The notes beneath the pieces were generated by a model, which had not been told where the DNA came from, did no database searches, and saw only the letters and a list, made by a program, of their open reading frames with translations. DNA of 64,000 bases from Planctomycetota bacterium (GTDB lineage: Bacteria; Planctomycetota; UBA11346), in the NCBI GenBank assembly GCA_038213805.1, contig JBBQSO010000012.1, forward strand, positions 1-64,000, read 5' to 3'. The position numbers and the translations under genes are program-made. How positions within the stretch are numbered: position 1 is the stretch's first letter; the number at the start of each line of letters is the position of its first letter. This document shows, one piece after another, positions 5,156 through 25,969 of this stretch.

Positions 5156-8100
5156 TCAGCTCTCGCCGGCGAGGGCGGCCAGGGTCGCGTCGACGAGCGG
5201 CGCGAGCCCGCCGCCGAAGGTGGCGAGCTGAGCCTGATCGCCCGCGCGCGCCGCCTGCTCCAGCGCCGTGGCGTGGTGGGCGAGGCGCAGCGCGCCCATG
5301 CCCAGGCTGGCGCCGCGCAGCTGGTGGGCGAGGCGGCCGGCGCGTGGAACGTCATGGGCGGCGAGGGCGACGGCGAATTGACTGGCGAGTTGCGGCGCCT
5401 CGGTGCGGAAGGCGGTCAGGATCGTGGTCATGATCTCCGCGTCGGCGATCTCGCTGCGCAGCCGCACAAGGGTGGGATGGTCGATCAGCGGGGGCGCGGG
5501 GGGTTCTGCCGTCGGCGCGATCGGCACCGGCGGCGCTGGCGCAGCAGCAGCAGCTGCTGCTGGTGCTGCCGCTGGCTGAACTGCCGCCGCCGGTGCCACG
5601 CCATCCGCCGCGCCCTGGCGCACCGGCAGCCAGCGCGCCAGGGCGCGCTCCAGCCGTTCGAGCTGCACCGGCTTGGCCAGGTAATCGTCCATGCCCGCCT
5701 CCAGGCATTGCTCGCGGTCCCCGGCCATGGCGTTGGCGGTCATCGCCACCACCGGCATGCGCGGCCCTACGGCGCTGCGCTCGCGTTCGCGCAGCGCGCG
5801 CGTCGCGGCATACCCGTCCATGACCGGCATCTGGCAGTCCATCAGCACCAGATCGAAGCCGCCGCCGGCGAGCGTGTCGAGCGCCGCCTTGCCGTCCGCA
5901 ACCAGGGTGACGGTCAGGCCGAGGCGCGTCAGCAGGGCCTGGGCAAGGCGCTGGTTGACCGCGTTGTCTTCGGCGACCAGCACGTGTCCCGCCAGACGCG
6001 CGCTGGCGGCCTGCGGCAGCGTCGTGCGCGCCGGCGCGGCGCCGCTCAGCGCCGCGTCGGCGGCAAGCCGCAGCAGATGTGCGCGCGGCGGCTTGACCAC
6101 GCAGCGCACGCGGCCCGATGCGGCCAGCGCGGCGGACGGTTCCGCGCGGTCGACGGGGGCGAGCAGCACCACCCGGGTGGCGTCAAGCAACGGGTCGGCC
6201 GCGACCGCCTGGGCCAGCGCTGCGCCATCCATCACGGGCATGCCGAGGTCGGCGACCAGCAGCCGGAAAGGCATCCCGCTCTGGCTGGCGGCGCGCAGCG
6301 TGCGCAGGGCCTCGGCGGCGTCGGCCGCGGCGGTGCAGCGCGCGCCCCAGCCCGCGAACAACTCACCGAGCAGCGCGCGCGCGCCGGCGTGGTCGTCGAC
6401 CACCAGCACCGAGACCCCGGCGAGATCAGGGCCGGTGGGCGCAGCGGCAATCGGGGCGGCGGGCAGGCGCATGGTGCAGCGGAAGGTGCTGCCCGCGCCG
6501 GCCACGCTCTCGACCGCGATGGTGCCGCCCATCAATTCGACCAGGCGCTTGCTGATCGCCAGGCCCAGGCCGGTGCCGCCGTAGCGCCGGGTGGTCGAGC
6601 TGTCCGCTTGGCTGAACGACTGGAACAGCCGCGGCAGCGCATGCGCGGGGATGCCGATGCCGGTGTCGCGCACCGCGCAGGCGACGAGCCCCTCGCGGTC
6701 GGTGGCGACGCTCACCTCGATCTCGCCGGCGGCGGTGAACTTGACGGCGTTGCCAAGCAGGTTGATCAGCACCTGGCGCAGGCGCACCGGCTCGCCGCGC
6801 ACCTGCGCCGGCACCCCGGGGGCGAAGCGGCAGAGCAGCTCCAGGCCCTTGGCCTGGGCGCGGTCGGCGACCAGGGCGATGGCGTCCTCGACCACCGCGC
6901 GCAGCTCGAAGTCGACGCTCTCCAGCTCCAGTCGCCCGGCCTCGATCTTCGAGAAGTCGAGGATGTCGTCGATGATCGTCAGCAGGCCGTCGGCGCAGCC
7001 GCGCACGGTCTCCAGCAGGGTGCGCTGATGGGCGTCCAGCGCGGTCACGGCAAGCAGCCCGGCCATGCCGATCACGCCGTTCATCGGCGTGCGGATCTCG
7101 TGACTCATGTTGGCGAGGAAGTCGGACTTGGCGCGGTTGGCCGCCTCCGCCGCCTGGCGCGCTTCGACCAGCGCGTTGATGGTGTCGGTGACCATGATGA
7201 TGCCGCCGACGGCGCCGTCGACGTCGCGCCACGGATGGATCGCCCAGCGCAGCCACAGCACGGTCCCGTCCGGGCGTGTGAAGGCCTCCTCACTGCACGC
7301 CAGGCGCTCGCCGGCGAGGCAGCGTCGGTGCAGGTCGCGCCAGGCCTGCGGGATCTCGGAGAAGACCTCGTAGTGGCTGAGTCCGGCGAGGTCGCGGTCG
7401 CCCAGGGAATAGTCCTCGAGCCACTTGCCGCTCCAGCTCAGGTAGCGCATGTCGCGGTCGAGCATGGCGATGGCGATCGGTGCGTCGGCGACCACCTGGC
7501 GGAAGCGGTCGTGCGCACGCTGCAGCTGTTCCTGCGCGCGCTTGCGCTCGCTGATGTCGTGGATCACGCCGCTGAAGAAGCGCGCGCCTTGGGTCTCCCA
7601 CGTGGCCAGCGTCAGCTCGATGGGGAACTCGCTGCCGTCGCGGCGCAGGCCGACCAGCTCGACCGGGCGCCCGACCAGGGTCGAGACGCCGGTCGCCGCG
7701 ACGCGCGCCAGGCCGGCCTGGTGCGCGGGCCGGAAGCGCTCTGGCATCAGCAGATTCAACGGCAGGCCGACGATCTCGGACTCGTTGTAGCCGAAGATCG
7801 CCTGGGCGCCCTGGTTCCACGACAGCACCATGCCGCCGGTGTCGGTGTGCAGGATCGCCGCCCCGGCCGATTGCATCACGCCACGCAGGCGCGCCTCCGA
7901 GGCGGCCAGCGCGGCGGTGGCGCGCGTGCGCTCGGCGAGTTCGCCCTCGACTGAGGCGGTGGCCGCGGCGATGCGCCGCTGCAGTTCGCCGCTGTGCACC
8001 AGCAGGCCGGCGGTGAGCGGGCTGACCAGCAGGTAGAGGCCGCCCGCCCCTAGCGCGATCAGCCCGGCGACGCAGCTCATGATCAGCGCGAACTGCTGAT

Positions 8101-9586
8101 TGATGCCGTCAAAGACCTCGCCCGCGGGCAGGCGCGCGACGATCGCCAGGCCGCTCGCGGGCACCGGCGCGTAGGCGGCGAGCACCGGATTGGTGGTACT
8201 GAGATCAGCGGTGAGCGCGCCGGAACCCTCGGTCAGCGCCAAGCGGACTGCCTGGAGCGCGAGTGGCCCCGCGTCGCCGGCGTGGGCGACGAGGTGGCCG
8301 GCGCCATCCGCCTCCCACAGCGCGCCGCCGCCTGCGCTCGCGAGGTAGACCGTGCCGCCACCGCCCAGCCCGTCGCGGTCGGCGAGGATGGCGGCCAGGC
8401 GCGCGCAGCCGATGGTGACCAGCTCGGTGCCGCGGCGCGGCTCGCCCGCGCGGCCGGACAACAGCGGCACGACGACCACCAGCACCGCACCGCCGGGCGC
8501 GGCGAACGGGCCGCGGACATCTGCCTGGCCAGCCTGCTCGAAATTGATGGTGTCTGGCGGCGCGTCCCCGATCTGCAGCAGCAGCGCCCCGTCAGCCTGC
8601 ATGCAGCGGATGCCGCGGATCTCGGGCGTGGCGCGGACCGCCTCGCCCAGCGTGCCCTGCAGCGCCGCGACCGCCTGTTCGCGGCTGACGGTGCCGTCGG
8701 CCAGGCCGTCGAGGGCGCGTCGCGGAGTCATGCGCGAGGCGATCTGCGCGGCCAGAATGCGCGCCGAGTCGAGTTGGCCGGCGCACCCGCTGGCGCGGGC
8801 GCGCACCGTACCGAGCAGCGCCTGGCGCTCGCCCTGCTGGACGCGCACGTACATCGGCAGCGCCGCCAGCACGGCGCTGAAGGCGGCGATCAGGCCGGTG
8901 CCGAACACCGCGCTCGCGAGGATCGAACGGCGTAGGTCAGCGATGTCCAGCGGGCGCGTGATGTGCAGGGCGACGATGCGCGCGAGCAGGCTGCCGCCGC
9001 TAATGATGAAGCACACGGCGGTGTGCAGGGCCAGACGGGTGAAATTCCCCCAGCCATAGGTCGAGGGCAGGTCGAGCAAGTAACCGAGGAGCGCCAACAT
9101 GCCGATCGCCAGCACCAGCGCGCCGACGATGGCGCCGCCGAGCAGGTGCGCACCGCCGGGCCGGGGGCGCGCCAGGGTGACCAGCCCGCAGCCCATCAGG
9201 ACCATGCCGCAGGCGGTCGCCGGGGCCATGCGCCCGGGCGTGTAGACCCCGCTCGACACCCACGGTTCGAAGAACAGGCGGTCGATCCCGAGATCCCAGC
9301 CACCCATGACCTGGCTGAGGGTGAGCGCACCCAGAGCCCCGACCAGGCTGCCGAGGCAGGCGGCGGCGCGCCAGCGTGCGGTGGCGAGCGCGAGCACCCC
9401 CAGGCCGCAGCCCAGGAGCGCGAGCGCGGTGTTGTACTGCATCGGCACGTAATCCGGCAGGAGCGAGATCAGCGTCCGGTTGTGCAGGTACCAGCCGCTG
9501 ATCACCACCACGGCGATCGCCACCAGCAAGGCGCCGCCAAGCAGCTGCAGTGGGCGCGCGAGCCGCGGGAAGGTGGTTCTCAGCAT
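5156..9586 (-). CDS. Membrane hybrid sensor histidine kinase (PAS x2, HisKA, HATPase, REC x2, Hpt)
   Basis: Multiple N-terminal TM segments, FLANMSHEIRTPMNG, NLLGNAVKFT, GGTGLGL, LMDCQMPVMDG, Hpt AHQLRGAS; start chosen at MLRTT. Confidence 0.95.
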   Translation of the reverse strand: MLRTTFPRLARPLQLLGGALLVAIAVVVISGWYLHNRTLISLLPDYVPMQYNTALALLGCGLGVLALATARWRAAACLGSLVGALGALTLSQVMGGWDLGIDRLFFEPWVSSGVYTPGRMAPATACGMVLMGCGLVTLARPRPGGAHLLGGAIVGALVLAIGMLALLGYLLDLPSTYGWGNFTRLALHTAVCFIISGGSLLARIVALHITRPLDIADLRRSILASAVFGTGLIAAFSAVLAALPMYVRVQQGERQALLGTVRARASGCAGQLDSARILAAQIASRMTPRRALDGLADGTVSREQAVAALQGTLGEAVRATPEIRGIRCMQADGALLLQIGDAPPDTINFEQAGQADVRGPFAAPGGAVLVVVVPLLSGRAGEPRRGTELVTIGCARLAAILADRDGLGGGGTVYLASAGGGALWEADGAGHLVAHAGDAGPLALQAVRLALTEGSGALTADLSTTNPVLAAYAPVPASGLAIVARLPAGEVFDGINQQFALIMSCVAGLIALGAGGLYLLVSPLTAGLLVHSGELQRRIAAATASVEGELAERTRATAALAASEARLRGVMQSAGAAILHTDTGGMVLSWNQGAQAIFGYNESEIVGLPLNLLMPERFRPAHQAGLARVAATGVSTLVGRPVELVGLRRDGSEFPIELTLATWETQGARFFSGVIHDISERKRAQEQLQRAHDRFRQVVADAPIAIAMLDRDMRYLSWSGKWLEDYSLGDRDLAGLSHYEVFSEIPQAWRDLHRRCLAGERLACSEEAFTRPDGTVLWLRWAIHPWRDVDGAVGGIIMVTDTINALVEARQAAEAANRAKSDFLANMSHEIRTPMNGVIGMAGLLAVTALDAHQRTLLETVRGCADGLLTIIDDILDFSKIEAGRLELESVDFELRAVVEDAIALVADRAQAKGLELLCRFAPGVPAQVRGEPVRLRQVLINLLGNAVKFTAAGEIEVSVATDREGLVACAVRDTGIGIPAHALPRLFQSFSQADSSTTRRYGGTGLGLAISKRLVELMGGTIAVESVAGAGSTFRCTMRLPAAPIAAAPTGPDLAGVSVLVVDDHAGARALLGELFAGWGARCTAAADAAEALRTLRAASQSGMPFRLLVADLGMPVMDGAALAQAVAADPLLDATRVVLLAPVDRAEPSAALAASGRVRCVVKPPRAHLLRLAADAALSGAAPARTTLPQAASARLAGHVLVAEDNAVNQRLAQALLTRLGLTVTLVADGKAALDTLAGGGFDLVLMDCQMPVMDGYAATRALRERERSAVGPRMPVVAMTANAMAGDREQCLEAGMDDYLAKPVQLERLERALARWLPVRQGAADGVAPAAAVQPAAAPAAAAAAAPAPPVPIAPTAEPPAPPLIDHPTLVRLRSEIADAEIMTTILTAFRTEAPQLASQFAVALAAHDVPRAGRLAHQLRGASLGMGALRLAHHATALEQAARAGDQAQLATFGGGLAPLVDATLAALAGES

Positions 9587-14128: not shown

Positions 14129-17100
14129 ATGACCAAGCGCCCGACCCTGCCGCTCGTCCCGCTGCTGGCCGCCCTCGCGCTGCCCCTTTCGCTGCGCGCC
14201 GCTGAGACGCCCTACCTGGTGCCGACCGCGCCCGGCGTCACCGCCAGCGCGGTGCTGAGCGTGGGCGATGCGGTCGGCGTGAAACCGGACGGGGTCACGC
14301 CCTACCGTTTCTGCGGCATTCCCGACGGGCTGGGCGCCTTCGACAACGGCGATGGCACCTTCACCCTGTTGATGAACCACGAGCTCACGGGCGACAAGGG
14401 CGTCATGCGCGCGCACGGCGCCAAGGGCGCCTTCGTCTCGAAGTGGACGATCAACAAAACCACCCTGGCGGTCAGCGCGATCAGCGACCTGATCCAGACG
14501 GTCAAGCTCTTCGATCCGCTTACCGGCACCTGGGCCCCGGCCACGACGCCGTACGCGTTCTCGCGCTTCTGCTCGGCCGACCTGCCGGCGCCCACCGCCT
14601 ACTTCAACGTCGCGACCGGCAAGGGCAGCACCGCGCACATCTTCATGAATGGTGAGGAGATCAGCCCCGAGGGCACGCCGCCGACCGGCCGCTTCGGCCT
14701 GAACTTCGCGCACATCGTCGACGGTCCCGAGGCCGGCATCACCTATGAGCTGCCGCGCTTCGGCAAGTACGCGCCCGAGAACACCCTGGCCTGCCCGGTC
14801 GCCCAGGACAAGACGGTGGTGATGGGCAACAGCGACAACAGCAACGCCGGCGGCTTCGTCTACCTCTACGTCGGCACCAAGACCACCGTCGGCACCGAGA
14901 TCGATAAGGCCGGCCTGACCAACGGCACGCTGTTCGGCGTGCGCGCCAACGGCCAGGCCGATGAGACCCGCGCGGCCGCGGTCGGCGCGCTCAAGGGCGC
15001 GGCGGTGCCATTTACGCTGGTCCCGCTCGGCGACGTCTCGGCGAAGACCGGCGAGCAGCTGTTGGCGGATTCGACCACCGCCGGCGCGACGCGCTTCCTG
15101 CGCCCCGAGGACGGCGCCTGGGATCCCAGCCACCCCGACACCTACTACTTCGTCACCACCGACGACATGAATTCGGCCAAGAACGGCGGCCTGACCGTCG
15201 CTGGCAAGACCGGCCGCACGCGGCTCTGGCAGCTGCACTTCACCGACATCGCCAATCCCGAGAACGGCGGCACGATCACCAATTTGATCGACGGCACCGA
15301 GGATCCGGGACCGCAGATGATGGACAACATCACCGTCGACCACAGCGGTCGCATCGTCATCTGCGAGGACACCGGCAACAACGACCACCTCGGCAAGGTG
15401 TGGCTCTACGATATCGCCACCGGCAGCATGACAGTGGTTGCCAGCCATGATCCCGCGCGCTTCGGCGAGATCGACACCACCAGCGGCACTCCGATCGCGC
15501 GCCCGGCGAGCGGCACCTCGGCCGCGGGCATCCCTTTCACCAAGGACGAGGAGACCTCGGGCGTGCTCGATGTCTCGGAGATCCTCGGGGCCGGCCGCTT
15601 CCTCATCGATGTGCAGGCGCATGTCTCTGGCGCGACCGTGCCGTCGTCGGCCGCGGAACTGGTCGAAGGTGGCCAGCTGCTGGCGATGACCATCCCTGCC
15701 GGCACCGCGACGCCCGTCGCGACCGGCCCCGACACCGCCTACCTGGTGCCCACCGCCAGCGGCATCGCCACCAGCGCGATCCTTACCGTCGGGCAATCCG
15801 TCAACCTCAAGCCCGGCAGCACCGCGCCCTACCGCTTCTGCGGCATCCCCGATGGCCTCGGCGCGTTCGACAACCTCGACGGCACCTTCACCCTGCTGAT
15901 GAACCACGAGCTCAACAGCGGTTCGCTGGGCAGCGTGCGCGCCCACGGCTCGAATGGCGCCTTCGTGTCGCGCTGGACGATCACCAAATCCTCGCTGGCC
16001 GTGACCCGCATCGTCGACCAGATCCACACCGTGATGCGCTTCGATCCGGCGACCTCGACCTATGCACCGGGCGCGTACCAGTTCCAGCGCTTCTGCTCGG
16101 CGGACCTGCCCGCCCCGACCGCCTACTTCAATCCGTTTACCGGCAAGGGCACCAGCGAGCGCATCTTCATGAACGGCGAGGAGATCTCGCCCGAAGGCGC
16201 GCCGCCCACCGGCCGCTTCGGCGCGAACTTCGCGCACATCGCCACCGGCCCGGCCAACGGCACCAGCTTCGAGCTGCCGCGCCTGGGCAAATACGCGCCC
16301 GAGAACACCCTCGCCAACCCCTTCCCCCAGGACAAGACGGTGGTGATGGGCAACAGCGACAACAGCGCGGCCGGCGGCTTCATCTATCTCTACGTCGGCA
16401 CCAAGACCACCACCGGCACCGACATCGACAAGGCCGGGCTGACCAACGGCACGCTGTTCGGCGTGCGCGCCAACGGCAAGGCCGATGAGACCCGCGCGGA
16501 TGCGGTCGGCGCAGCCAAGAATCTCGCGGTGCCGTTCACCCTGGTGCCGCTGGGCGATGTCTCGGCCAAGACCGGCGAGCAGCTGTTCGCCGACTCCACC
16601 AGCGCCGGGGCCACGCGCTTCCTGCGCCCGGAGGATGGCGCCTGGGATCCCTCCTTCCCCAGCGACTACTATTTCGTCACCACCGACGACATGAACTCGG
16701 CCAAGAACGGCGGTCTGACCGTCGCGGGCAAGACCGGGCGCTCGCGCCTGTGGAAGCTGCACTTCACCGACATCGCGAACCCCGAGAGTGGCGGCACCAT
16801 CACCAATCTCATCAGCGGCGCCGAGGATCCCGGTCCGCAAATGATGGACAACATCACCGTCGACCGCGTCGGCCGCATCATCATCGACGAGGATCCCGGC
16901 AACCAGGATCACCTCGCCAGGATCTGGTCGTACGACATCCACACCGGTGCCCTGGTCAGGATCGCCAGCCACGATCCCGCGCGTTTCGGCGACATCTCGA
17001 CCGCCGGTGGCACGCCGGTCGCGGTCCCTGCGGCCGGCATCGCCGCGAATGGCCTACCGTTCAGCAAGGATGAGGAGAGCTCGGGCGTGCTCGACGTCAG

Positions 17101-19531
17101 CGACATCCTGGGCGCCAACCGCTTCCTGGTTGATGTGCAGGCGCACCTCGCCAGTGGCACCGTGCTGACCAACGATCAGAAGGAGCTGGCCGAGGGCGGC
17201 CAGCTGCTGGCCATGACCGTCGCGCTGCCCAACACGCCGCCGGTCGCCCAGGCCGACACCCTGACCGCGGTCAAGGACGGCAAGCTTGTGGTCGCGGCCA
17301 GCGCGCTGTCGGCCAACGACACCGACGCCGATGGCGACCCGGTGCTGGTCACCGCGGTCAGCGCCGCGAGCAGCCAGGGCGGCACGGTCGCGCTGGTCGA
17401 TGGCCGCGTGATTTACACGCCCCACGCCGGCTTCACCGGCACCGACACCTTCACCTACACGCTGCGCGACGGCGCGCGCGTGTCGAAGCCGATCCCGATC
17501 GATGCGCCGCTCGCCAGCGTGCCGGTCACGGGCGGCGCAGTCGCCGTGCAGCACGCCGGCTACGGCTCGGCGGTGGCCCAGGCCCCGGGCGTGGCCAACG
17601 AATACTTCCTGCTCACCGACCGCGGACCCAACGTCGACGGCCCGACCAGCGGCCCGCTCACCGGCGGCAAGATCTTCCCGGTCCCCGCCTTCCATCCCGA
17701 GATCGCGCGCGTGCGCCTGAACGCCGACGGCACCGTGACGCGCCTCGCCACCATCACGCTCAAGGACGCCGCCGGCGTGCCCCTGACCGGTCTGCCCAAC
17801 CCGATCGGTGCCGGCGGCACCGGCGAGCTGGCGCTCGATCCCGCGCTGAACGTCCTGCCTACCGATCCCACCGGCATCGACAGCGAAGGCCTGGTCGCGC
17901 TCGCCGACGGCAGCTTCTGGGTCAGCGACGAGTACGGCCCGTGGCTGCTGCACCTTGACGGCACCGGCCGCACCATCGAGCGCGTCGGACCGTTCGCGGC
18001 CAACAGCGCCGGCCACAAGCTGCCCAGCGTGCTGGCAAAGCGGCTGATCAACAAGGGCATGGAAGGCCTGACCGTGACGCCCGACGGCAGCATGCTGGTC
18101 GGCATCATGCAGTCGGCACTGCTCAATGGCCCATCGGTGACCGCCGACACCGCCAAGCAGGTGGCGATGCTGCGCGTCGTGACCTACCGCCTGATCGCCG
18201 GTGGCGGCGAGGCGGTCGGCGCCACCCACCAGTTCGCCTACCTGCTCGAGGTCACCAACGCGGCCGGCAACAAGCTGGCCTCGAGCGAACTGACCGCGCT
18301 GTCCAACAGCGAGTTCCTGGTCAACGAGCGCGACGGCAAGTTCCCCAGCGACAGCGGCGGCGCTAACAAGAAGTTCTGGCGCTTCACCCTGGCGGGGGCG
18401 ACCGATATCAGCGGCGGCGACACCGCCGACGGCCTGCTGCTCGGCGGCCTGCCCCTGGAGGAGGCGCTGTTCAACAAGAATTCGGCCCAGGCGCGCACCA
18501 TCCTCACCGGGGCCGGCATCACCGCCCTGGTCAAGGACGCCACCCCGCTGCTCGACCTGGTCGGCACCCTGGGCGGCCAATACGCCCACGACAAGGTCGA
18601 GGGCGTGATCTTCAGCGGCGGCCACATCATCATCTCCAATGACGATGACTTCGGCATCAACGGCAGCGGCACTGTGACCGCGAAGACCATCCCGGGCTCG
18701 CTGCCGCTCGGCAACCTGCCCGGCACCGCGACCGGGCCGCTGACCACCGACTACAGCCAGCTGTTGGAGGTCGATCCGGCCAAGCTCGCCACCGCGACCG
18801 GCACGGTCACGGTGACGGTGGCGGCCAACAGCGCGCCGACCATCGGCACGGTGGCGGACACCACCATCCTCGAGGACGCCGCCACCGGCGCGCTCGCGGT
18901 GACGGTCGGCGATGCTGAGACCCCGGCAGTTGCGCTGGTGCTGACCGCGACGTCCGACAATCCTGCGCTGCTGCCCGCTGGCGGCATCGTCCTGGGCGGC
19001 AGCGATGCGGCGCGCACCATCACCCTGACCCCGGCCGCCAACCAGAACGGTCACGCCCTGGTGACGCTGACCGTGACCGACGCCCACGGCGGCACCGCCA
19101 CCAGCACCTTCACCCTGACGGTTACACCGGTAAACGACGCGCCGGTGGCTGCTGACGGCACCCTGGCCGCGGTCGCAGGTGTGCCGGCGCACGGCACGCT
19201 GGTCGCCACGGATATCGACAGCGCGACGCTCACCTACGCGGTGGTCGGCGCCCCGGCCACCGGCACCATCGTGCTCGACGCGGGCACCGGCGCCTATGTC
19301 TACACGGCGCCTGCCGCGACGCCGGCCGGCACGGTGACCTTCACGTTCAGGGCCAACGACGGCGCGCTGAACTCCAACGTCGCCACCGTGACCGTGACTG
19401 TGGCTGCGGCGCCTCCTGGCGAGCACCATGACGACACGAAGAAGAAGTGCGGGCGCGGCTCGGGCGTCATGGCCCTCATGCTCGGGCTGTTCGCGCTGAT
19501 CCGCCTCGGCCTCTGGCGCCGCCGCCGCTGA
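14129..19531 (+). CDS. Large surface protein: two PhoX/DUF839-like domains, Ig/cadherin-like domains, phytase-like domain, C-terminal anchor
   Basis: Signal peptide; twice PDGLGAFDN..LLMNHE, RFCSADL, FLRPEDG, MMDNIT, E.SG; LTDRGPN, DSEG, WVSDEYGP, NKGMEG, KVEG, NDDDFG; DADGD/VNDAP Ig repeats; KKKCGRGSG-TM-RRRR. Confidence 0.85.
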   Translation: MTKRPTLPLVPLLAALALPLSLRAAETPYLVPTAPGVTASAVLSVGDAVGVKPDGVTPYRFCGIPDGLGAFDNGDGTFTLLMNHELTGDKGVMRAHGAKGAFVSKWTINKTTLAVSAISDLIQTVKLFDPLTGTWAPATTPYAFSRFCSADLPAPTAYFNVATGKGSTAHIFMNGEEISPEGTPPTGRFGLNFAHIVDGPEAGITYELPRFGKYAPENTLACPVAQDKTVVMGNSDNSNAGGFVYLYVGTKTTVGTEIDKAGLTNGTLFGVRANGQADETRAAAVGALKGAAVPFTLVPLGDVSAKTGEQLLADSTTAGATRFLRPEDGAWDPSHPDTYYFVTTDDMNSAKNGGLTVAGKTGRTRLWQLHFTDIANPENGGTITNLIDGTEDPGPQMMDNITVDHSGRIVICEDTGNNDHLGKVWLYDIATGSMTVVASHDPARFGEIDTTSGTPIARPASGTSAAGIPFTKDEETSGVLDVSEILGAGRFLIDVQAHVSGATVPSSAAELVEGGQLLAMTIPAGTATPVATGPDTAYLVPTASGIATSAILTVGQSVNLKPGSTAPYRFCGIPDGLGAFDNLDGTFTLLMNHELNSGSLGSVRAHGSNGAFVSRWTITKSSLAVTRIVDQIHTVMRFDPATSTYAPGAYQFQRFCSADLPAPTAYFNPFTGKGTSERIFMNGEEISPEGAPPTGRFGANFAHIATGPANGTSFELPRLGKYAPENTLANPFPQDKTVVMGNSDNSAAGGFIYLYVGTKTTTGTDIDKAGLTNGTLFGVRANGKADETRADAVGAAKNLAVPFTLVPLGDVSAKTGEQLFADSTSAGATRFLRPEDGAWDPSFPSDYYFVTTDDMNSAKNGGLTVAGKTGRSRLWKLHFTDIANPESGGTITNLISGAEDPGPQMMDNITVDRVGRIIIDEDPGNQDHLARIWSYDIHTGALVRIASHDPARFGDISTAGGTPVAVPAAGIAANGLPFSKDEESSGVLDVSDILGANRFLVDVQAHLASGTVLTNDQKELAEGGQLLAMTVALPNTPPVAQADTLTAVKDGKLVVAASALSANDTDADGDPVLVTAVSAASSQGGTVALVDGRVIYTPHAGFTGTDTFTYTLRDGARVSKPIPIDAPLASVPVTGGAVAVQHAGYGSAVAQAPGVANEYFLLTDRGPNVDGPTSGPLTGGKIFPVPAFHPEIARVRLNADGTVTRLATITLKDAAGVPLTGLPNPIGAGGTGELALDPALNVLPTDPTGIDSEGLVALADGSFWVSDEYGPWLLHLDGTGRTIERVGPFAANSAGHKLPSVLAKRLINKGMEGLTVTPDGSMLVGIMQSALLNGPSVTADTAKQVAMLRVVTYRLIAGGGEAVGATHQFAYLLEVTNAAGNKLASSELTALSNSEFLVNERDGKFPSDSGGANKKFWRFTLAGATDISGGDTADGLLLGGLPLEEALFNKNSAQARTILTGAGITALVKDATPLLDLVGTLGGQYAHDKVEGVIFSGGHIIISNDDDFGINGSGTVTAKTIPGSLPLGNLPGTATGPLTTDYSQLLEVDPAKLATATGTVTVTVAANSAPTIGTVADTTILEDAATGALAVTVGDAETPAVALVLTATSDNPALLPAGGIVLGGSDAARTITLTPAANQNGHALVTLTVTDAHGGTATSTFTLTVTPVNDAPVAADGTLAAVAGVPAHGTLVATDIDSATLTYAVVGAPATGTIVLDAGTGAYVYTAPAATPAGTVTFTFRANDGALNSNVATVTVTVAAAPPGEHHDDTKKKCGRGSGVMALMLGLFALIRLGLWRRRR

Positions 19532-19551
19532 ACCGTCGATGATTCATGACG

Positions 19552-19594
19552 ACACCGGACCCGGGAGGAGAACCTTCCCGGGTCCGGTGTTTTC
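19552..19594 (+). terminator. Intrinsic terminator hairpin
   Basis: Perfect 15-bp stem ACACCGGACCCGGGA / TCCCGGGTCCGGTGT followed by T residues, between convergent genes. Confidence 0.75.
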
Positions 19595-19705
19595 ATGGGC
19601 GGCTGACGGCTCTTGGCGTCATGGCGGCCGGAATCGTCGCCCGCGCAACCAGCCGCATCCAGCCGCGCGCATCTGCAGTTCCCGGCAGCGGGCGTGCCCG
19701 CGACC

Positions 19706-21379
19706 TCACTGCGCGTAGCAGGCGTCCGGGAAGCCATCGCCGTCGGCGTCGCGCAGCCACTGCAGCGCGGCGCCCCAGGCCTGCGCAGCGGGCACGCCGG
19801 GACCGGGCGGATGTGCGAACCAGCGCGGCGCGGCGAAGGCGCCATCGCCATCTGCGCCACGGCAGGGCAGCCCGTCGAGGCCGTACAGCACCAGCGCGCC
19901 GAGGAAGGCGAGCACCTCCTGGCGCTGCGCGATGGGCGCGCAGCGGTAGCGCGCCGCGCTGTCCGCGGCCTCGCCGCCGTGGCGGCGGATGACCGCATCG
20001 AGGTCGAGGCTGGCGCCATCGTGGCCGTAGGGCGCGCAGCTGCCGACGCCCCACAGCGGCGGGGTGCGGAACCGCGTCACCACGCTGCCGTCGAACTGCA
20101 CCTGGTGGAAGGCCGGGCCGAGGTCGTGGCTGGCAAGATCGCTGTAGAGGCCGGCGACGCGCAGCGTCCCGCCGCACGTGGGCGACTCGAGCTGCGCCAC
20201 CAGCGCACCTGCGCTGTCTTCAGCGACCGTCAGCGCGGCGAAGCGGCGGTCGCGTCCGCGCAGTTCCCAGTCGGGGACGTGGCAGGCCGCGCAGCCCAGC
20301 GCGGCGAAGTGCGCACGGCCGGCCTCCACCCCGGGCTGCGCACGCCGCTCTGCGGGGGCGGGGAGGTTCAGCAGGTAATGCTCGATCAGATCGAGGTCGC
20401 CCGCGGTGAGCTCGGCGCACACCCCGTCCCCGTCCGGGTCGTCCAGGCTGAAGCCACCCGCATCGCGGCGCAGGCCGCAATCGGCAGGCGTGCCGAGGTG
20501 CACCTGCGCAGCGCCGCTGGGCGGCGTCGCCGCCCAACCGTCGTGGCGCGGCTCCGCCGCCAGCGCGGGATCCTCGGCCTGGATCCCGGCGTGGATCATG
20601 AAGGCGCCGACCACCAGGCTGCGCAGGCTCAGGCCGTGCGCGACGCCCGGGGTCTCGCCCCAGCCGAAGGCCTGCAGCGCGAAATCGAAGCCCGCGACGC
20701 CCGGGTCGTCGAGGCGCCGCGCGCCGGGTACGCGGTGGTGGTCAAGATCCAGGTACCAGACGTGCAACTGCGGGTCGAGATCCGGGCGGCCGTCGCCATC
20801 GGCGTCGTCGAAGCGGCCGTAGGAGACCTGCGCTCCGACGCCCGTGGCCACGATCGCGCGCACGCCAGCGGCCTCAGCCGCGCTGACCATGCCGTCGCCG
20901 TCGCGGTCGACCGTGGCGAGCAGCGCGCTGCGGATGCCCCCGGCGAGCTGCTCGATGAGCCCCGCCCCGCGCAGATGCGGGGTGCGGCGACCGGACGGGC
21001 CGTTCTTGGGGATCACCGGTCCGCTGCCACCGTCCCCGCCGGCGCGCTCGTGGCACAGCGCGCAGGAGGTCACCGGGCCGAGGCGCAGCGCCGCGGTGCG
21101 GCCATCCGCGAGGCGCGGTACCGCGAGCGGTTCGCCGGCGCCGTCGCGCGCGCTGAAGCTGCGTCGGAACAGGTCGCGCCCGCGCCCCCAGGCCAGCCAC
21201 GGATCGTGCGCGACCAGCCACGCGCTGGTGCCCGGACGGTCGCTCGCGCCCTGTACCACGCGCAGGCGTGGCAGCTCCGCGTCGTCGCGTTCGGCGCCGT
21301 GGGCGGTCAGCGCGCCCCACCCCGCGAGCAGCAGCGTGACGGCTGCGCGGGCCGGGCTCAGCGTGGCAGCGCGCAGCAC
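19706..21379 (-). CDS. Di-heme oxidoreductase (DHOR/DUF1111-like) protein with EF-hand
   Basis: Two CxxCH (SCALCH, GCAACH), TPHLRGAG, LYSDLASHDLG, RTPPLWGVG..PYGHDG, HGGEA; EF loop DRDGDGMVSAAE; start approximate. Confidence 0.85.
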   Translation of the reverse strand: MLRAATLSPARAAVTLLLAGWGALTAHGAERDDAELPRLRVVQGASDRPGTSAWLVAHDPWLAWGRGRDLFRRSFSARDGAGEPLAVPRLADGRTAALRLGPVTSCALCHERAGGDGGSGPVIPKNGPSGRRTPHLRGAGLIEQLAGGIRSALLATVDRDGDGMVSAAEAAGVRAIVATGVGAQVSYGRFDDADGDGRPDLDPQLHVWYLDLDHHRVPGARRLDDPGVAGFDFALQAFGWGETPGVAHGLSLRSLVVGAFMIHAGIQAEDPALAAEPRHDGWAATPPSGAAQVHLGTPADCGLRRDAGGFSLDDPDGDGVCAELTAGDLDLIEHYLLNLPAPAERRAQPGVEAGRAHFAALGCAACHVPDWELRGRDRRFAALTVAEDSAGALVAQLESPTCGGTLRVAGLYSDLASHDLGPAFHQVQFDGSVVTRFRTPPLWGVGSCAPYGHDGASLDLDAVIRRHGGEAADSAARYRCAPIAQRQEVLAFLGALVLYGLDGLPCRGADGDGAFAAPRWFAHPPGPGVPAAQAWGAALQWLRDADGDGFPDACYAQ

Positions 21380-22788
21380 AGGGGCCCGTCGTCGTCGCCG
21401 ACGCGCACGTCCCACACCTGCAGCTGCGCGAGGGCGAGGCGCGCGTCGCTGCGCAGCACCGGCACGCTGAGCACGCGCTGCTCGCCCGCGGCCAGGTGCA
21501 GGCGGGGGTTGGGCAGTGCCGGGTCCTGATACCCGGCGAGGCGGAATTCCGCGTGCAGCGCGACCGCGCTGAGATTGGCGACGGTGAGCTGCGCGGTGGC
21601 CCCGGCGCCGCGTGCCGCGACGTACGCCAGCGTGCGCGCATTGAAGGTGCGGTCAGCGACGCGGGGCGTGGCGGTGAAACGCTCGGCCGGCAGCGCCAGC
21701 GCAGCGGCCGGTCCGCACGCGGGCAGGGGCGCACCGGCGATCGCCAGCGCGCAGACCGTCAGGGATACGGTGCTGCCGGCGTGGGCGGAGAGCCGCACCG
21801 GCACGCTGGTCATCGCACCGGGCGCCAGGGTGATGCGCGGATTGGCCGCCGCCCCGTGCTGCAGGTCGGGGAGCCGGAAATCGCAGGCGATGTCCAGGGT
21901 CGAGGCGTTGCGCAGCTGCACTGCTTCGCCGTCCGGGGCGATGCGCCACAGCAGCGCGCGCGGCGCGAACGCGGCCGAACCTTCCGCCTCGCCCGCCGCC
22001 TGCACGGCGCTCCAGCCCGGCTCCTCGGCGAAGCACGCCGCCGGTGCGCCCAGCGGCAGCAGCAGCGCGCCCTGGTCTGCGCCGACGCGCACATCCCAGA
22101 TGTCGACCAGCGCGACCGCGACGCGCGGGTCGGGGTGGGCCAGCGGCACCAGCACCTCGGCGGTGCTGCCGGGCAGGACGTGCATGCGCGGATTCGCCGC
22201 TGATGTGGCGGGCTGGTGCCCGGCGAGGCGGAAGGCGAAATGCAGCGCGTCGTGGCTGAGGTTCTTGAAGTGGATCTCGGCCGCGGACCCGTCTTCGAGC
22301 AGGCGCACCGTGCAGGCCAGGGCCTCGGCGCGGAAGCGTGCGTCGTCGCCGAAGCACTGCACGTAGGTGGCCACCGTCGCTGCGGGCGGCAGCGTCGTGA
22401 CGGACGGCGGCGGCACGCCGTCCACGGTGGTGGCCTGCAGGCGGGCGCGGTAGAGGCCCTGCTCGAGGCGCGGTCGCGGCACCGGCGTGCGCGTCCGCGC
22501 GCCGGGCGCGAGCGTGAGCGCTTCCAGGGCGCCGTCGCCTGCGGCGAAACCCTGGTCCAGCCGCACGCGGCAGGCCAGCTGCCGGCTCCCGCGGTTCCAT
22601 AGTTCGAGTTCCGCGCCATCACAGCCGCTGCGCAGCACACGGTAGGTCAGGCCGGGAAAAGCGGCATCGGCGCTGGCGAGCCACACCGGCGCGGCCGGCT
22701 GGATGTCGTCGAAGGCCGCATAGCCCCAGGCCACCGCCGGCAGCAGCGCCGCGCACGCGATCAGCAGGCAGCGCGCCAGGGCGGTCAT
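21358..22788 (-). CDS. Secreted hypothetical protein with four internal beta-rich repeats
   Basis: Signal peptide; recurring N....L...FRL...Q.....NPR..L.PG motif; ATGA overlap with upstream gene. Confidence 0.75.
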   Translation of the reverse strand: MTALARCLLIACAALLPAVAWGYAAFDDIQPAAPVWLASADAAFPGLTYRVLRSGCDGAELELWNRGSRQLACRVRLDQGFAAGDGALEALTLAPGARTRTPVPRPRLEQGLYRARLQATTVDGVPPPSVTTLPPAATVATYVQCFGDDARFRAEALACTVRLLEDGSAAEIHFKNLSHDALHFAFRLAGHQPATSAANPRMHVLPGSTAEVLVPLAHPDPRVAVALVDIWDVRVGADQGALLLPLGAPAACFAEEPGWSAVQAAGEAEGSAAFAPRALLWRIAPDGEAVQLRNASTLDIACDFRLPDLQHGAAANPRITLAPGAMTSVPVRLSAHAGSTVSLTVCALAIAGAPLPACGPAAALALPAERFTATPRVADRTFNARTLAYVAARGAGATAQLTVANLSAVALHAEFRLAGYQDPALPNPRLHLAAGEQRVLSVPVLRSDARLALAQLQVWDVRVGDDDGPLCCALPR

Positions 22789-23270
22789 GGCGCATCCGCC
22801 AGCAGCTCGACGCGCGCGCCTTCCAGCGTCGTCGCGGTCCAGCCGCCGCCCTCGCGCTGCAGGCGCAGGGTGCCGGTGACGCGCGCGCGGCGGTTCTTGG
22901 CCGGTGCCGGCTGCGGCGTCGGCAGGTCGACGAACACCAGGAACTGCGGACGCGCGTCGCAGCTCAGCCCGCAGCAGCCGAAGCGGCTGGGCGGACCGAG
23001 CACGGCACCGTCCATCAGTCCGCCGTGGACCAGCTGCGGCAGCGTGAACAGCACGCCGCTGAGCACGGTCTCGTGGCCCTCATGCGCCGCCAGATCGGGG
23101 GGAAACTCCCAGCCCTCGCCAGCCTTGCGGATGGCGGCGAAGGGCAGCCAGGCCGCACCGTCCGCGGCCGCCAGCGGCGGACGCTGCAGATCGTGCCAGG
23201 TGGCCCAGTTGACGGCGCCGATGGCGCACAGCCCGACCACCAGCAGCAGGACGGTGCGTGTCGCCATCAT
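22785..23270 (-). CDS. DUF3299-like OB-fold protein
   Basis: N-terminal TM, FPPDLAAHEGHETVLSG, FGCCGLSC, RVTGTLRL; ATGA overlap with permease stop. Confidence 0.6.
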   Translation of the reverse strand: MMATRTVLLLVVGLCAIGAVNWATWHDLQRPPLAAADGAAWLPFAAIRKAGEGWEFPPDLAAHEGHETVLSGVLFTLPQLVHGGLMDGAVLGPPSRFGCCGLSCDARPQFLVFVDLPTPQPAPAKNRRARVTGTLRLQREGGGWTATTLEGARVELLADAP

Positions 23271-24409
23271 CCGACCGCCGCCACCGGCGCCGCGTCCGCC
23301 GCCTTGCGTCCGCCAAGCGCGCGGCCAGCGCGGCGCACCAGACCCAGGCCCACGGTCGCCGCCAGCACCAGCACGAACGGCCAATGCCACCACGGGATGT
23401 TGCCCAGGGCCTCGGCCGTGCCGGTCGGCTTCGCCGAGACGCCCATGAACGAGGCCACGCAGCAGCCGCCCGCCGCCTGGCCGCCGAGCGGCGACGGCTG
23501 GTAGTGGTAGTCAGCGAAGACCCAATGATCCGCGATCAGCCCGCCGGTCAGCGACATCACCACCAGCGAAACGGTGAACAGCGCCGTGGTGCGTCCGCCG
23601 AGCTGCCGGCGCAGCGCGAGCAGTTCGCCGAGATTGGTCGCAGGCCCCGCGATCAGGAAGGCGATGCCCGCGCCCGGCGAGATGCCGGCCAGCAGCAGGC
23701 TCTGGACCACCGGCATCGACGGCACCGAGCAGGTGTACGTGACCAGCCCCAGGACGATGACGTAGACCAGGGTCATGACATGCTGCGTGCCCAGCCAGGT
23801 GGCGATCCAGCCCAGCGGCAGCAGCGCCAGCACCGCCGCGGCGATGAGCAGGCCGATCACCAGGTCGACGCTGATCTCGGCACCGAGGTCGTAGAACGCC
23901 CAATGCCCGGCGGCGCGGGCGCGGGCGCCCCACGTACGCCGGTCGGCGGCGGGGTCCACCGGGCACGCATCGCCCGGCGGCGGCGGCTCGTTGCGCAGCA
24001 GCGCATTGCCGACGAAACCCGCGAGCAGTGCACCGGTGACGCAGGTCGCGACATAGAGCACGGTGAAGGTCCCACCCATCAGGCTCAGGCACAGCAGCAT
24101 CGCGACCGGCGACAGCGCCGGGGCGGTGATCAGGAAGGACAGGATGGTGCCGCGCGCCGCGCCGCCCTTGACCATGCCGATGCCCAGCGGTAGCACCGTG
24201 CACGAGCACATCGGCAGCAGGCAGCCGATCCCGGTCGCGGTCAGCACCGGCCTCACCCCGCGCGCAGAGAACCAGCGCGCCATGGTGGCGACCGGCACGT
24301 ACTCGCGGATCACCGCCGCGATGAGGTAGCCGACGACCAGATACGGTGCGCTCTGTGCCAGGGCCTGGATGAACGCGGCGAGGAAGCGGTCGAGGTGATC
24401 CATGGGCAT
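23267..24409 (-). CDS. DUF318/ArsP-family permease
   Basis: [48 protein letters not shown]; multiple TMs. Confidence 0.9.
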
Positions 24410-24470
24410 GCTGGTCCGGCCAGCATGCTCGTCGCGGATGTGAAGATCGCGTGGACGAGCCGCGAAGGGC

Positions 24471-24500
24471 CCATCAGCCATCAGCCATCAGCCATCAGCC
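24471..24500. repeat. Heptamer tandem repeat (CCATCAG)x4
   Basis: Seen directly; contains the stop codon of the MFS gene at 24488-24490. Confidence 0.85.
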
Positions 24501-25969
24501 GTTCCCTGTTCCCGCGCTTCACCTTGATCACGCTGCCGGAACGCCACCCAAAACACCCCCAGCACCACCACGGCGAATGCCGCCAGCGGCAGCCACAGGC
24601 GCGGCCAGTACGGCAGCGAAGCGCTGGTGCTGCTGCTGACGGCGTGGCCACCGGGATCGGTGAAGGCGTGGCCGGCGAGCGCGCCGGCGACGATGGCGCC
24701 GACGTAGAGGCCCAGGCCGTAGGTGAAGAACAGGTTCATCGCCTGCGCCTGACCGCGGATCTGCGGCGGGGTGGTGCGGTCGACGTAGACTTGGCCGGTG
24801 ATGAAGAAGAAGTCGTAGCTGATGCCGTGCAGCAGCACGCCGAGCAGGAAGACCAGGAAGCCGAGGTGCATGAACGGCACCGGGAAGCCGGCGAGGACCA
24901 CGCCGGGATAGGCGGGATCGACGGCACCGTCGGCCAGGAACGGCGCCGGCACGGCGCCCTGCGTAGCCGCCCAGCTGAATAGCAGGTAGCGCACCGCCCA
25001 GGCGAGGATGCCGCACAGGATCATGCGCTTGATGCCCAGGCGGCGGATCAGCAGCGGCATCAGGAAGAGCATGCCCGCCTCCAACCAGGTGCCGAGATTG
25101 CCCCACACCGAGACGTGGCTGAGCGCCATCGCGCCCATCTGGTTGCCGAGGTAGGCGTAGTAGGCGGAGAGCGGGATGCAGACCAGGAAGGCGCACACCA
25201 GGTAGGTGGCGAAGGCCGGGTTGCGCCATTCGCGCCAGGCGTCGGCGAAGACCAGCTCGCGCCACGCGAAGGGCTGGCCGCGCTTGGGCGCAGGCGTCGC
25301 GGGCAGGGTCAGGCAGAACAGCCCGGCGGCGGCCGCGGCGAGCGCGGCGAGGCGGAACTGCACCGCGCCCTCGCCCGCCTCGACGACGTGCCCGTCCGCG
25401 CCGACGCTGCTGAAGCCGAAAGCCAGCGCCAGGCCGCCGGCGATCCAGCCGAAGGTGCCCCACAACCGCACCAGCGGGTACTGCGCGTTGCCGCCGGGCA
25501 GGTGGCGGAAGGCGAGCGCCGCGCTCAGCGCCAGGGTCGGCATGTAGCACAGCATGTGCGCGGTGATGCCGAGGTTGAACCAGGTGCTCTTGGCCATGGT
25601 CAATCCGGCCCAGGTCAGCGTGGTGTAATCCGCGCCGGCCACCGCAGTGCCCGGCAGGTCGCCGATCCACGGCAGGCACCACATGATCGCGCCGCCGGCC
25701 AGGAAACAGACGGCCAGCACTTTGCCGGCGTCGAAGAAGCGGTCGACGCACAGGCCGAGCGCGAAGGGCGCGATGATCGCGCCGAGCGGGCTGGCGGTGT
25801 AGAGCCAGAAGGCGTCCTGCGCCATGCCGTGCGCGATCATGTAGCGGAAGCCGGTCAAGTACCACGCCCCCCACACGAAGAACTGCAGGAAGAACAGTAC
25901 CGCCAGCCGTGCGAGGATGTGCGGCGGCGTGGTGGCGTCCGCGGGCGCCGGGACGGAGTCTGCGCTCAC
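24488..25969 (-). CDS. MFS transporter, nucleoside:H+ symporter (NupG-like) family
   Basis: [41 protein letters not shown]. Confidence 0.9.

Follow-up and report, generated by a model that had tools for sequence, protein, structure and literature searches.

A set of four minus-strand genes, lying head to tail at 19706–24409 in a 64,000-nucleotide stretch of a Planctomycetota contig (JBBQSO010000012.1; the whole stretch is called the window, and all positions are those of the window), was found to recur in the same order in eight loci with different surroundings. The genes, here named perm, p2, rep4 and dhor, encode a DUF318/ArsP_1 permease, a membrane-anchored protein of DUF3299-like fold, a secreted four-domain protein and a DHOR-type di-haem protein, respectively. 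An initial annotation of this DNA had put them forward as a single coupled metal-handling or redox system of a kind that it did not recognise. The results described below define a rare, well-delimited unit of two separable pairs, carried throughout by metagenomic sequences, with two unnamed protein families and a suggestive enzyme-partner pattern. Its components are of known kinds or resemble them (a DUF318 permease, the DUF3299 fold, and an enzyme of the DHOR/bCcP/MauG type), and the metal-handling interpretation is reasonable, if unproven; its likeliest single version appears to be a soft-metal thiol relay in which Cu(I) would be exported and then captured and oxidised in the periplasm, to which we assign a probability of about 0.4.

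Conservation and separability of the gene cluster

The order perm-p2-rep4-dhor was found in the source genome (G000), in four further genomes of its taxonomic family (G002, G014, G017 and G385, the outer genes of G017 being cut by contig ends), and on three metagenome contigs (L059, L060 and L062). On two other metagenome contigs (L061 and L063) the sequence stops before the gene order can be judged, and L064 gave only a weak partial match to p2. The flanking genes differed in all six loci examined (the window, L006, L008, L023, L009 and L060). The linkage is far beyond chance, and the same order among different flanks argues that the four genes behave as a self-contained module; conserved co-occurrence, which had been set beforehand as a check on the initial annotation, was thus borne out. 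The thioredoxin gene that lies divergently just upstream of perm on the 163-kb contig L060 (4312–4707, minus strand) had no counterpart in the other loci. The tight coupling described from the window is also real: perm and p2 share an ATGA stop/start overlap at 23267–23270, p2 and rep4 share another at 22785–22788, and rep4 and dhor overlap by 22 or 58 nucleotides, depending on which GTG is taken as the dhor start (21415 or the alternative at 21379).

The proposal of a single coupled module was supported by this coupling and by the eight loci, but it does not hold in full, for the unit is composed of two separable pairs, perm-p2 and rep4-dhor. In G076, a genome of a different taxonomic family, a perm homologue (49% identity) with the CC loop and extra helix described below is followed by a distant p2 (28% identity, motif CCGPTC) at 6374–8121 of its contig C164 (L100), and neither rep4 nor dhor is nearby. 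The neighbours of this pair encode a Peripla_BP_6 protein, a large Ig-domain protein and a Ser/Thr kinase. In G018 (81% complete), conversely, a divergently oriented Ser/Thr kinase gene lies upstream of rep4-dhor, and a search of the whole genome revealed no p2.

Both p2 and rep4 have a narrow distribution. Among 48 genomes of the family, p2 gave strong matches in five (a sixth match was weak and confined to the transmembrane (TM) region), and rep4 in six, namely the same five and G018. A search with the p2 motif across 185,579 species, each represented by a single genome, returned 22 pattern matches, four of which were confirmed, and rep4 was present in four of 401 sampled genomes of the phylum, G000 included, and in none of the 377 outside the family. 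The carriers are metagenome contigs or bins throughout, and the four named records are Planctomycetota metagenome-assembled genomes or bins; the operon is carried by Planctomycetota of soil and sediment. No paper on such a gene combination was found in the literature searched, in keeping with the earlier statement that the combination was not a recognised one.

The cluster had further been described as rich in Cys and His. Cys makes up 2.27% of its residues compared with 1.14% in the 21 other open reading frames of the window (Fisher p = 4.6e-4), whereas His is not enriched (2.46% versus 2.42%). Likewise, the vicinal Cys-Cys attributed to three consecutive products is kept in perm (9 of 9 loci) and in p2 (23 of 23 sequences), but a terminal Cys-Cys is found in only 2 of 20 rep4 sequences.

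The four proteins and their relatives

The motifs listed in the initial annotation were all found where it had placed them (CSC, YTCS and GGCC in perm, GCCGLSC in p2 and the LCC end of rep4), and its family or fold assignments were upheld for perm (PF03773), dhor (PF06537), rep4 (four repeats) and, by fold, p2 (DUF3299). Perm matched the Pfam model PF03773 (ArsP_1) with 131.5 bits (cut-off 32.3) over profile positions 2–292 of 294, corresponding to residues 30–317 when numbered from an alternative ATG at 24481; this upstream start is possible, but homologues lend it no support. A gene for an MFS nucleoside symporter lies upstream, its end 78 nucleotides from the perm start, and a perfect heptamer tandem repeat at 24471–24500 ((CCATCAG) x 4.3 on the plus strand, CTGATGG on the gene strand) covers both the stop codon of the symporter gene and the ATG that may serve as an upstream start of perm. 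In every unit an ATG and a TGA lie in frames that differ, and a slip of one unit would change the reading frame.

The best NCBIfam matches of perm were SaoE (NF040736; 199.8 bits, below the cut-off of 325) and SO_0444 (NF033936; 172.7 bits, below the cut-off of 300), and by these scores perm is a relative of the two families, not a member of either. Homologues in four related genomes are 53–61% identical to it. The likeness to SO_0444 and SaoE extends to the PF03773 domain and to a CSC motif in the same helix; perm differs in having an added loop with a vicinal Cys pair (the CC loop) and a ninth TM helix, a partner of DUF3299 fold, and no adjoining regulator of the ZntR type. Of all motifs, CSC shows the strongest conservation between SO_0444 and SaoE, and SaoE, which carries it, has been proposed to be a metal exporter (Haft, preprint 10.1101/2022.07.06.499078). 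SO_0444, a Cu/Zn efflux transporter, is required for growth under Zn or Cu stress (PMC3219624). The CC loop and the extra helix were present in all nine loci for which the region was available, and the C-terminal 95 residues gave strong matches (E below 1e-10) in only five of the 401 phylum genomes, G076 being one of them; in all five the permease adjoins a p2-type gene. From hydropathy and the positive-inside rule the loop is predicted to face the periplasm. This form of the permease is undescribed in the protein-family libraries searched (Pfam and NCBIfam; the same scope applies to the other families discussed here).

The p2 protein matched no family model even at an E value of 10, and the DUF3299 model PF11736 matched neither the protein nor the genome at E values up to 10. 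An AlphaFold2 model built from an alignment of 23 sequences, with a predicted local distance difference test score (pLDDT) of 88.4, has an N-terminal TM helix and an OB-like domain. In Foldseek the top match to this model was 4hsp, the DUF3299 protein PA4066 (E 6.8e-4, probability 1.00), and with VIA the two superposed with a Z score of 9.8 and a root-mean-square deviation of 3.1 Å over 112 residues, the next best structure reaching a Z of 7.6; PA4066 is thus the sole strong structural match. In a search by language-model features (Atlas), the first named clusters were also DUF3299, with scores of 0.90 and 0.89. As judged from the predicted model, p2 is DUF3299-like by fold, not by family. C99, C100, L102 and C104 of its CCGLSC motif are invariant in all 23 sequences. 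A profile search recovered 22 proteins among 8000 candidates scored from a database of 5.8 billion clusters, and p2 is undescribed as a family in the libraries searched.

PA4066 is a periplasmic accessory of the Zur-regulated MacB-type exporter PA4063-PA4066 of Pseudomonas aeruginosa, its own role being still open (PMC11481552). The two proteins have in common the OB-like fold and a periplasmic accessory position encoded directly after a membrane transporter; p2 differs in its TM anchor, its invariant CCGxxC and its partner, a DUF318 permease in place of an ABC/MacB pump. Pfam found no ABC gene, whether of the MacB/FtsX type or another, in the cluster or its flanks. Canonical DUF3299 matches occurred in 78 Planctomycetota genomes, and the 30 loci with the highest scores all lack a perm-like gene within 1.5 kb. 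A second comparison is with the two-component permeases in which PF03773 is combined with DUF1980/TIGR03943, where a DUF318 permease is likewise followed by an anchored protein with a vicinal CC in a C-terminal beta-domain. The source genome itself has a separate PF03773 permease gene followed by a gene for a DUF1980_C/TIGR03943-like protein (contig C46, 187–1493; L010 and L067), which contains a His/Asp-rich stretch, HAHDHDHDDHGH, and an MCCAAD motif. TIGR03943 matched other contigs of the genome, not p2, and p2 was rejected as a DUF1980_C relative when hhalign against the genome's own DUF1980_C domain gave a probability of 0.1; the likeness is architectural only.

The AlphaFold2 model of rep4 (pLDDT 88.4, predicted template-modelling score 0.88) consists of four beta-sandwich domains, and the internal repeats are homologous to one another (domain 2 versus 4, E 2e-20; domain 1 versus 3, E 3e-7). 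Rep4 belongs to no Pfam or NCBIfam family; its sole weak Pfam match was the Ig-like FixG_C (18.8 bits, below the cut-off of 25.6). Foldseek and VIA searches with the whole model (more than 400 residues) returned only generic tandem Ig/FN3, PapD-like, ApaG and SOD-like structures with Z scores of at most 5.9, and the best Atlas score, 0.86, came without a named family. In 20 aligned sequences the invariant columns lie mainly in domain 2 (H183, P200, R201, H203, R234, D238 and G240), and H173, W36 and Y23 are nearly invariant, Y23 being the first residue past the likely signal cleavage site. This pattern of conservation suggests that domain 2 may hold a metal site. The family has no conserved Cys: rep4 of the window ends in LCCALPR, and at least one Cys occurs within the last 15 residues in 11 of the 20 sequences and none in the other nine. 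The possibility that rep4 is a lipoprotein was ruled out, the LIAC of the window signal peptide being absent from the homologues. A profile search of 1.84 billion representatives found 46 proteins at an E value of 1e-3 and 21 at 1e-30, and rep4, like p2, is undescribed as a family in those libraries. In L023 (G385, contig C228) a low-complexity SGPE/SGPK insert lies between domains 1 and 2, at about 8550–8660, and the rep4 search match in this locus was split in two because of it.

Dhor matched the Pfam DHOR model PF06537 with 35 bits (cut-off 22) over residues 342–507 only, which correspond to the last third of the model (positions 341–498 of 499). A profile of 23 homologues compared with solved structures found the bacterial cytochrome c peroxidases 1eb7 (E 2.5e-7) and 2c1u (1.5e-5), the di-haem enzyme 6e1c (1.8e-3), which we take to be MbnH, and MauG (3orv; 0.035), and on these profile matches dhor is assigned to the bCcP/MauG superfamily. 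Among NCBIfam models at E 0.01, only TIGR03981 was returned (27 bits versus a cut-off of 340), and no MbnH family. One of the four DxDxDG loops of dhor is a canonical EF-hand loop, DRDGDGMVSAAE, and those at residues 170, 204 and 326 contain columns that are invariant in the 23-sequence alignment; Cys residues outside the haem motifs are not conserved. When dhor (residues 45–530) and rep4 (residues 22–476), each entered as an alignment, were submitted to complex prediction, the score was 0.01 compared with a mark of 0.32, a value that speaks neither for nor against an interaction.

Unlike p2 and rep4, dhor has many homologues: at least 756 at E 1e-3 among 8000 candidates scored, the best 120 of which all carry PF06537, with matches at E 1e-40 in 20 of the 401 phylum genomes. 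In five loci (one of them without a Pfam scan), a related DHOR gene directly follows one to four tandem DUF2330 genes. The DHORs of L047–L050 and L057 (G348, G374, G215, G319 and G349) are the closest outside the rep4-linked clade (42–47% identity by tblastn), and the DUF2330 proteins encoded before them, on the same strand, are about 410–600 residues long. More distant DHORs adjoin FG-GAP/UnbV_ASPIC proteins (L055, L056 and L058, in G350 and G232), and G350 has two tandem DHOR genes. Rep4 and a DUF2330 protein gave a probability of 0.06 in hhalign, and no mention of DUF2330 was found in the literature searched. When 19 DHORs were placed in a maximum-likelihood tree, support was 100/100 for the clade linked to rep4, 90/87 for the DUF2330-linked clade, and 100/100 for a clade linked to FG-GAP or other proteins. 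These three clades match the type of neighbour, and the enzyme therefore tracks the neighbouring secreted protein; the DUF2330-DHOR pairing may represent a second enzyme-partner system.

Proposed mechanism and its alternatives

Each part of the cluster resembles proteins that move or handle metals in the cell envelope, and it is this resemblance that leads us to infer a metal-handling role. In the soft-metal relay that we favour, the four genes would constitute one operon assembled from two pairs. Perm and p2 would together transport a metal or metalloid with an affinity for thiols; perm would carry the substrate on Cys residues within the membrane (CSC in TM2 and YTCS in TM6) and hand it over on the periplasmic side by way of its lineage-specific CC loop; the acceptor would be the CCGxxC site of p2, whose anchor probably packs on the ninth helix of perm. 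The CC loop, the CCGxxC site and the in-membrane motifs, as read from the sequences, together point to a soft-metal thiolate relay at the outer face of the membrane. Rep4 and dhor would be a periplasmic redox pair in which dhor acts on or with rep4, where a metal site would be built from conserved His, Trp and Tyr, and the coupling of their genes suggests a periplasmic redox or maturation step. With Cu(I) as the substrate, exported and then captured and oxidised in the periplasm, the logic would be analogous to that of CopA/CueO or the Pco system. Export is slightly favoured over uptake as the direction of transport.

Several observations weigh against the relay. The metal, the direction and the redox step are all extrapolated from relatives (SO_0444/SaoE, the Zur operons with DUF3299, and bCcP/MauG). 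In other genomes it is with the uptake of iron, and not with copper, that DHOR proteins are associated. DUF3299 is tied to Zn/Co homeostasis, and PA4066 itself showed no evident Zn binding (PMC11481552). The placement of the CC loop depends on a perm topology obtained with a simple hydropathy script and the positive-inside rule. The two pairs exist apart, in G076 and G018, and may not work together; the G018 contig reaches 2 kb upstream of rep4, and the kinase gene stands there in place of perm-p2. The cluster is present in five or six of the 48 family genomes and is hence an accessory trait, and the flanks examined have no conserved regulator or metal sensor in common. Finally, the rep4-linked DHOR clade consists of one taxonomic family or of unplaced metagenome contigs, and its agreement with the neighbouring gene may reflect descent, not partner specificity.

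The separate occurrence of the pairs is what would be expected if two unrelated modules merely adjoin, with perm-p2 a metal or metalloid transporter and rep4-dhor a periplasmic peroxidase or protein-modifying pair that plays no part in transport. The perm and CCGPTC-bearing p2-like genes of G076 stand among unrelated genes, the rep4-dhor pair of G018 is preceded by a kinase gene in a genome in which p2 was not found, and the close DHOR relatives adjoin DUF2330 or FG-GAP/ASPIC proteins and no permease. On the other hand, the order of the four genes is the same in eight loci while the surroundings change, the coding regions of p2 and rep4 overlap or abut, and the nearly identical, narrow distributions of p2 and rep4 also speak against independent modules. 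We consider this explanation unlikely, although it deserves serious attention. Uptake by a system resembling EfeUOB, in which dhor would shift the redox state of periplasmic Fe or Cu, rep4 and p2 would bind the product and perm would import it, strikes us as improbable. Cys pairs fit soft metals better than iron as a matter of general coordination chemistry, and the nearest curated relatives of perm are exporters. The uptake model draws on the occurrence of DHOR/DUF1111 proteins in iron-uptake operons with EfeO-like imelysins, where they are treated as EfeB-like peroxidases (PMC3143127 and preprint 10.1101/072470). Our cluster resembles those operons in placing a DHOR-type di-haem protein within a transport-linked periplasmic gene set, and the succession of binding proteins and a peroxidase beside a permease mirrors the EfeUOB order; it differs in that a Pfam scan of the cluster and its flanks revealed no imelysin/EfeO, DUF1513, Ftr1/EfeU, TonB-dependent receptor or ferritin.

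ArsP-type members of DUF318 are exporters of organoarsenicals, as the family name and the title of a paper indicate, and the substrate might then be no metal at all, but a thiol-reactive sulfur or selenium species or an organoarsenical carried as a Cys adduct and oxidised by the cytochrome in the manner of Sox. The Cys found near the C-terminus in 11 of 20 rep4 sequences is reminiscent of the swinging arm of SoxY. In addition, relatives of SO_0444 include selenoproteins (preprint 10.1101/2022.07.06.499078). However, this C-terminal Cys is absent from the other 9 rep4 sequences, inspection of the cluster and its flanks yielded no sox, ars or sel gene, and no SoxYZ or SoxAX sequence or fold appeared among the matches listed, and we regard a non-metal substrate as very improbable.

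A more specific form of the metal reading concerns the pairing of dhor with rep4. MbnH, a member of the bCcP/MauG superfamily, generates the kynurenine at the copper site of its neighbour MbnP (PMC11951088), and the cluster resembles MbnH-MbnP, MauG-preMADH and other such enzymes encoded beside their protein substrate in that the gene for a di-haem enzyme directly follows that for a secreted beta-rich protein with conserved Trp and His. Dhor could by analogy be a MauG/MbnH-like maturase that oxidises a residue of rep4 (W36, the Y23 with which the mature protein begins, and the H173/H183/H203 cluster are candidate targets) to create a metal site that feeds or drains a relay running from the p2 CCGxxC to the perm CC loop and on to the in-membrane CSC/YTCS; the DHOR subfamily would then be maturases with swapped substrates (rep4, tandem DUF2330 and FG-GAP/ASPIC proteins). 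Dhor differs from MbnH in being a DHOR protein (PF06537) with four DxDxDG loops, and rep4 has neither an MbnP match nor a WxW motif; NCBIfam at E 0.01 returned nothing for rep4, including the MbnP model. We give the maturase proposal little credence in its full form. The switching of DHOR partners nevertheless suggests wider enzyme-substrate pairs in Planctomycetota and may be the more general lead.

If the soft-metal relay is correct, the cluster would represent an undescribed wiring of DUF318, in which a periplasmic Cys relay passes through a DUF3299-fold protein and is joined to a di-haem enzyme and an unnamed family. It would also provide testable roles for DUF3299, the function of which is open even in Pseudomonas, for DHOR/DUF1111, so far only indirectly tied to iron, and for DUF318, few members of which have been characterised.

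Coordinates and surroundings of the cluster

Table 1. Features of the perm-p2-rep4-dhor cluster and its downstream boundary
Feature	Position	Strand	Remarks
perm	23267–24409	−	DUF318/ArsP_1 permease, 380 aa from ATG 24409
CSC motif (PMCSCTV), TM2 of perm	24200–24208	−	kept in homologues
YTCS motif, TM6 of perm	23726–23737	−	YTCS or YTCT in homologues
46-residue loop of perm	23393–23530	−	GGCC; vicinal CC at 23459–23464; predicted periplasmic
Extra C-terminal (ninth) TM helix of perm	23336–23392	−	WWHWPF..., then basic tail; from hydropathy
p2	22785–23270	−	161 aa; N-terminal TM anchor and predicted periplasmic DUF3299-like OB domain
CCGLSC motif of p2	22959–22976	−	residues C99–C104
rep4	21358–22788	−	476 aa, secreted; signal peptide and four Ig-like domains
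Ig-like domains of rep4	residues 34–127, 155–242, 277–355, 381–473	−	from predicted model
Domain 2 of rep4, richest in conserved residues	22063–22326	−	H173, H183, P200, R201, H203, R234, D238, G240
dhor	19706–21415	−	DHOR-type di-haem protein, 569 aa counted from GTG 21415
Haem motif CALCH of dhor	21050–21064	−	CXXCH
Haem motif CAACH of dhor	20279–20293	−	CXXCH
DxDxDG loops of dhor (four)	residues 170, 204, 326, 556	−	from motif check
GC-rich hairpin	19545–19597		between the dhor end and the convergent 1800-aa gene

The window has a GC content of about 71%, and its peak, 76%, lies over rep4 and dhor (19706–22788). The GC content at third codon positions is 0.85 in these two genes versus 0.90–0.93 in the neighbouring genes, and that at first positions is higher (0.81–0.83). 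This base composition fits an accessory gene set, possibly an acquired one.

A scan of 19400–24700 for promoter and terminator consensus sequences gave no promoter-like and no terminator-like sites, and a search of 19300–24800 against Rfam at E values up to 0.1 gave no match. The hairpin downstream of dhor, which was not called by the consensus scan because it has no T-tract, has a minimum free energy of −47.2 kcal/mol (z −7.2), and none of 200 shuffled sequences folded as well; it is probably a two-way terminator. The convergent gene on its other side (14129–19531, plus strand) encodes a secreted protein of 1800 residues with a C-terminal TM anchor, which contains two PhoX-like repeats, a phytase-like esterase domain and several cadherin/Big_9 Ig domains.

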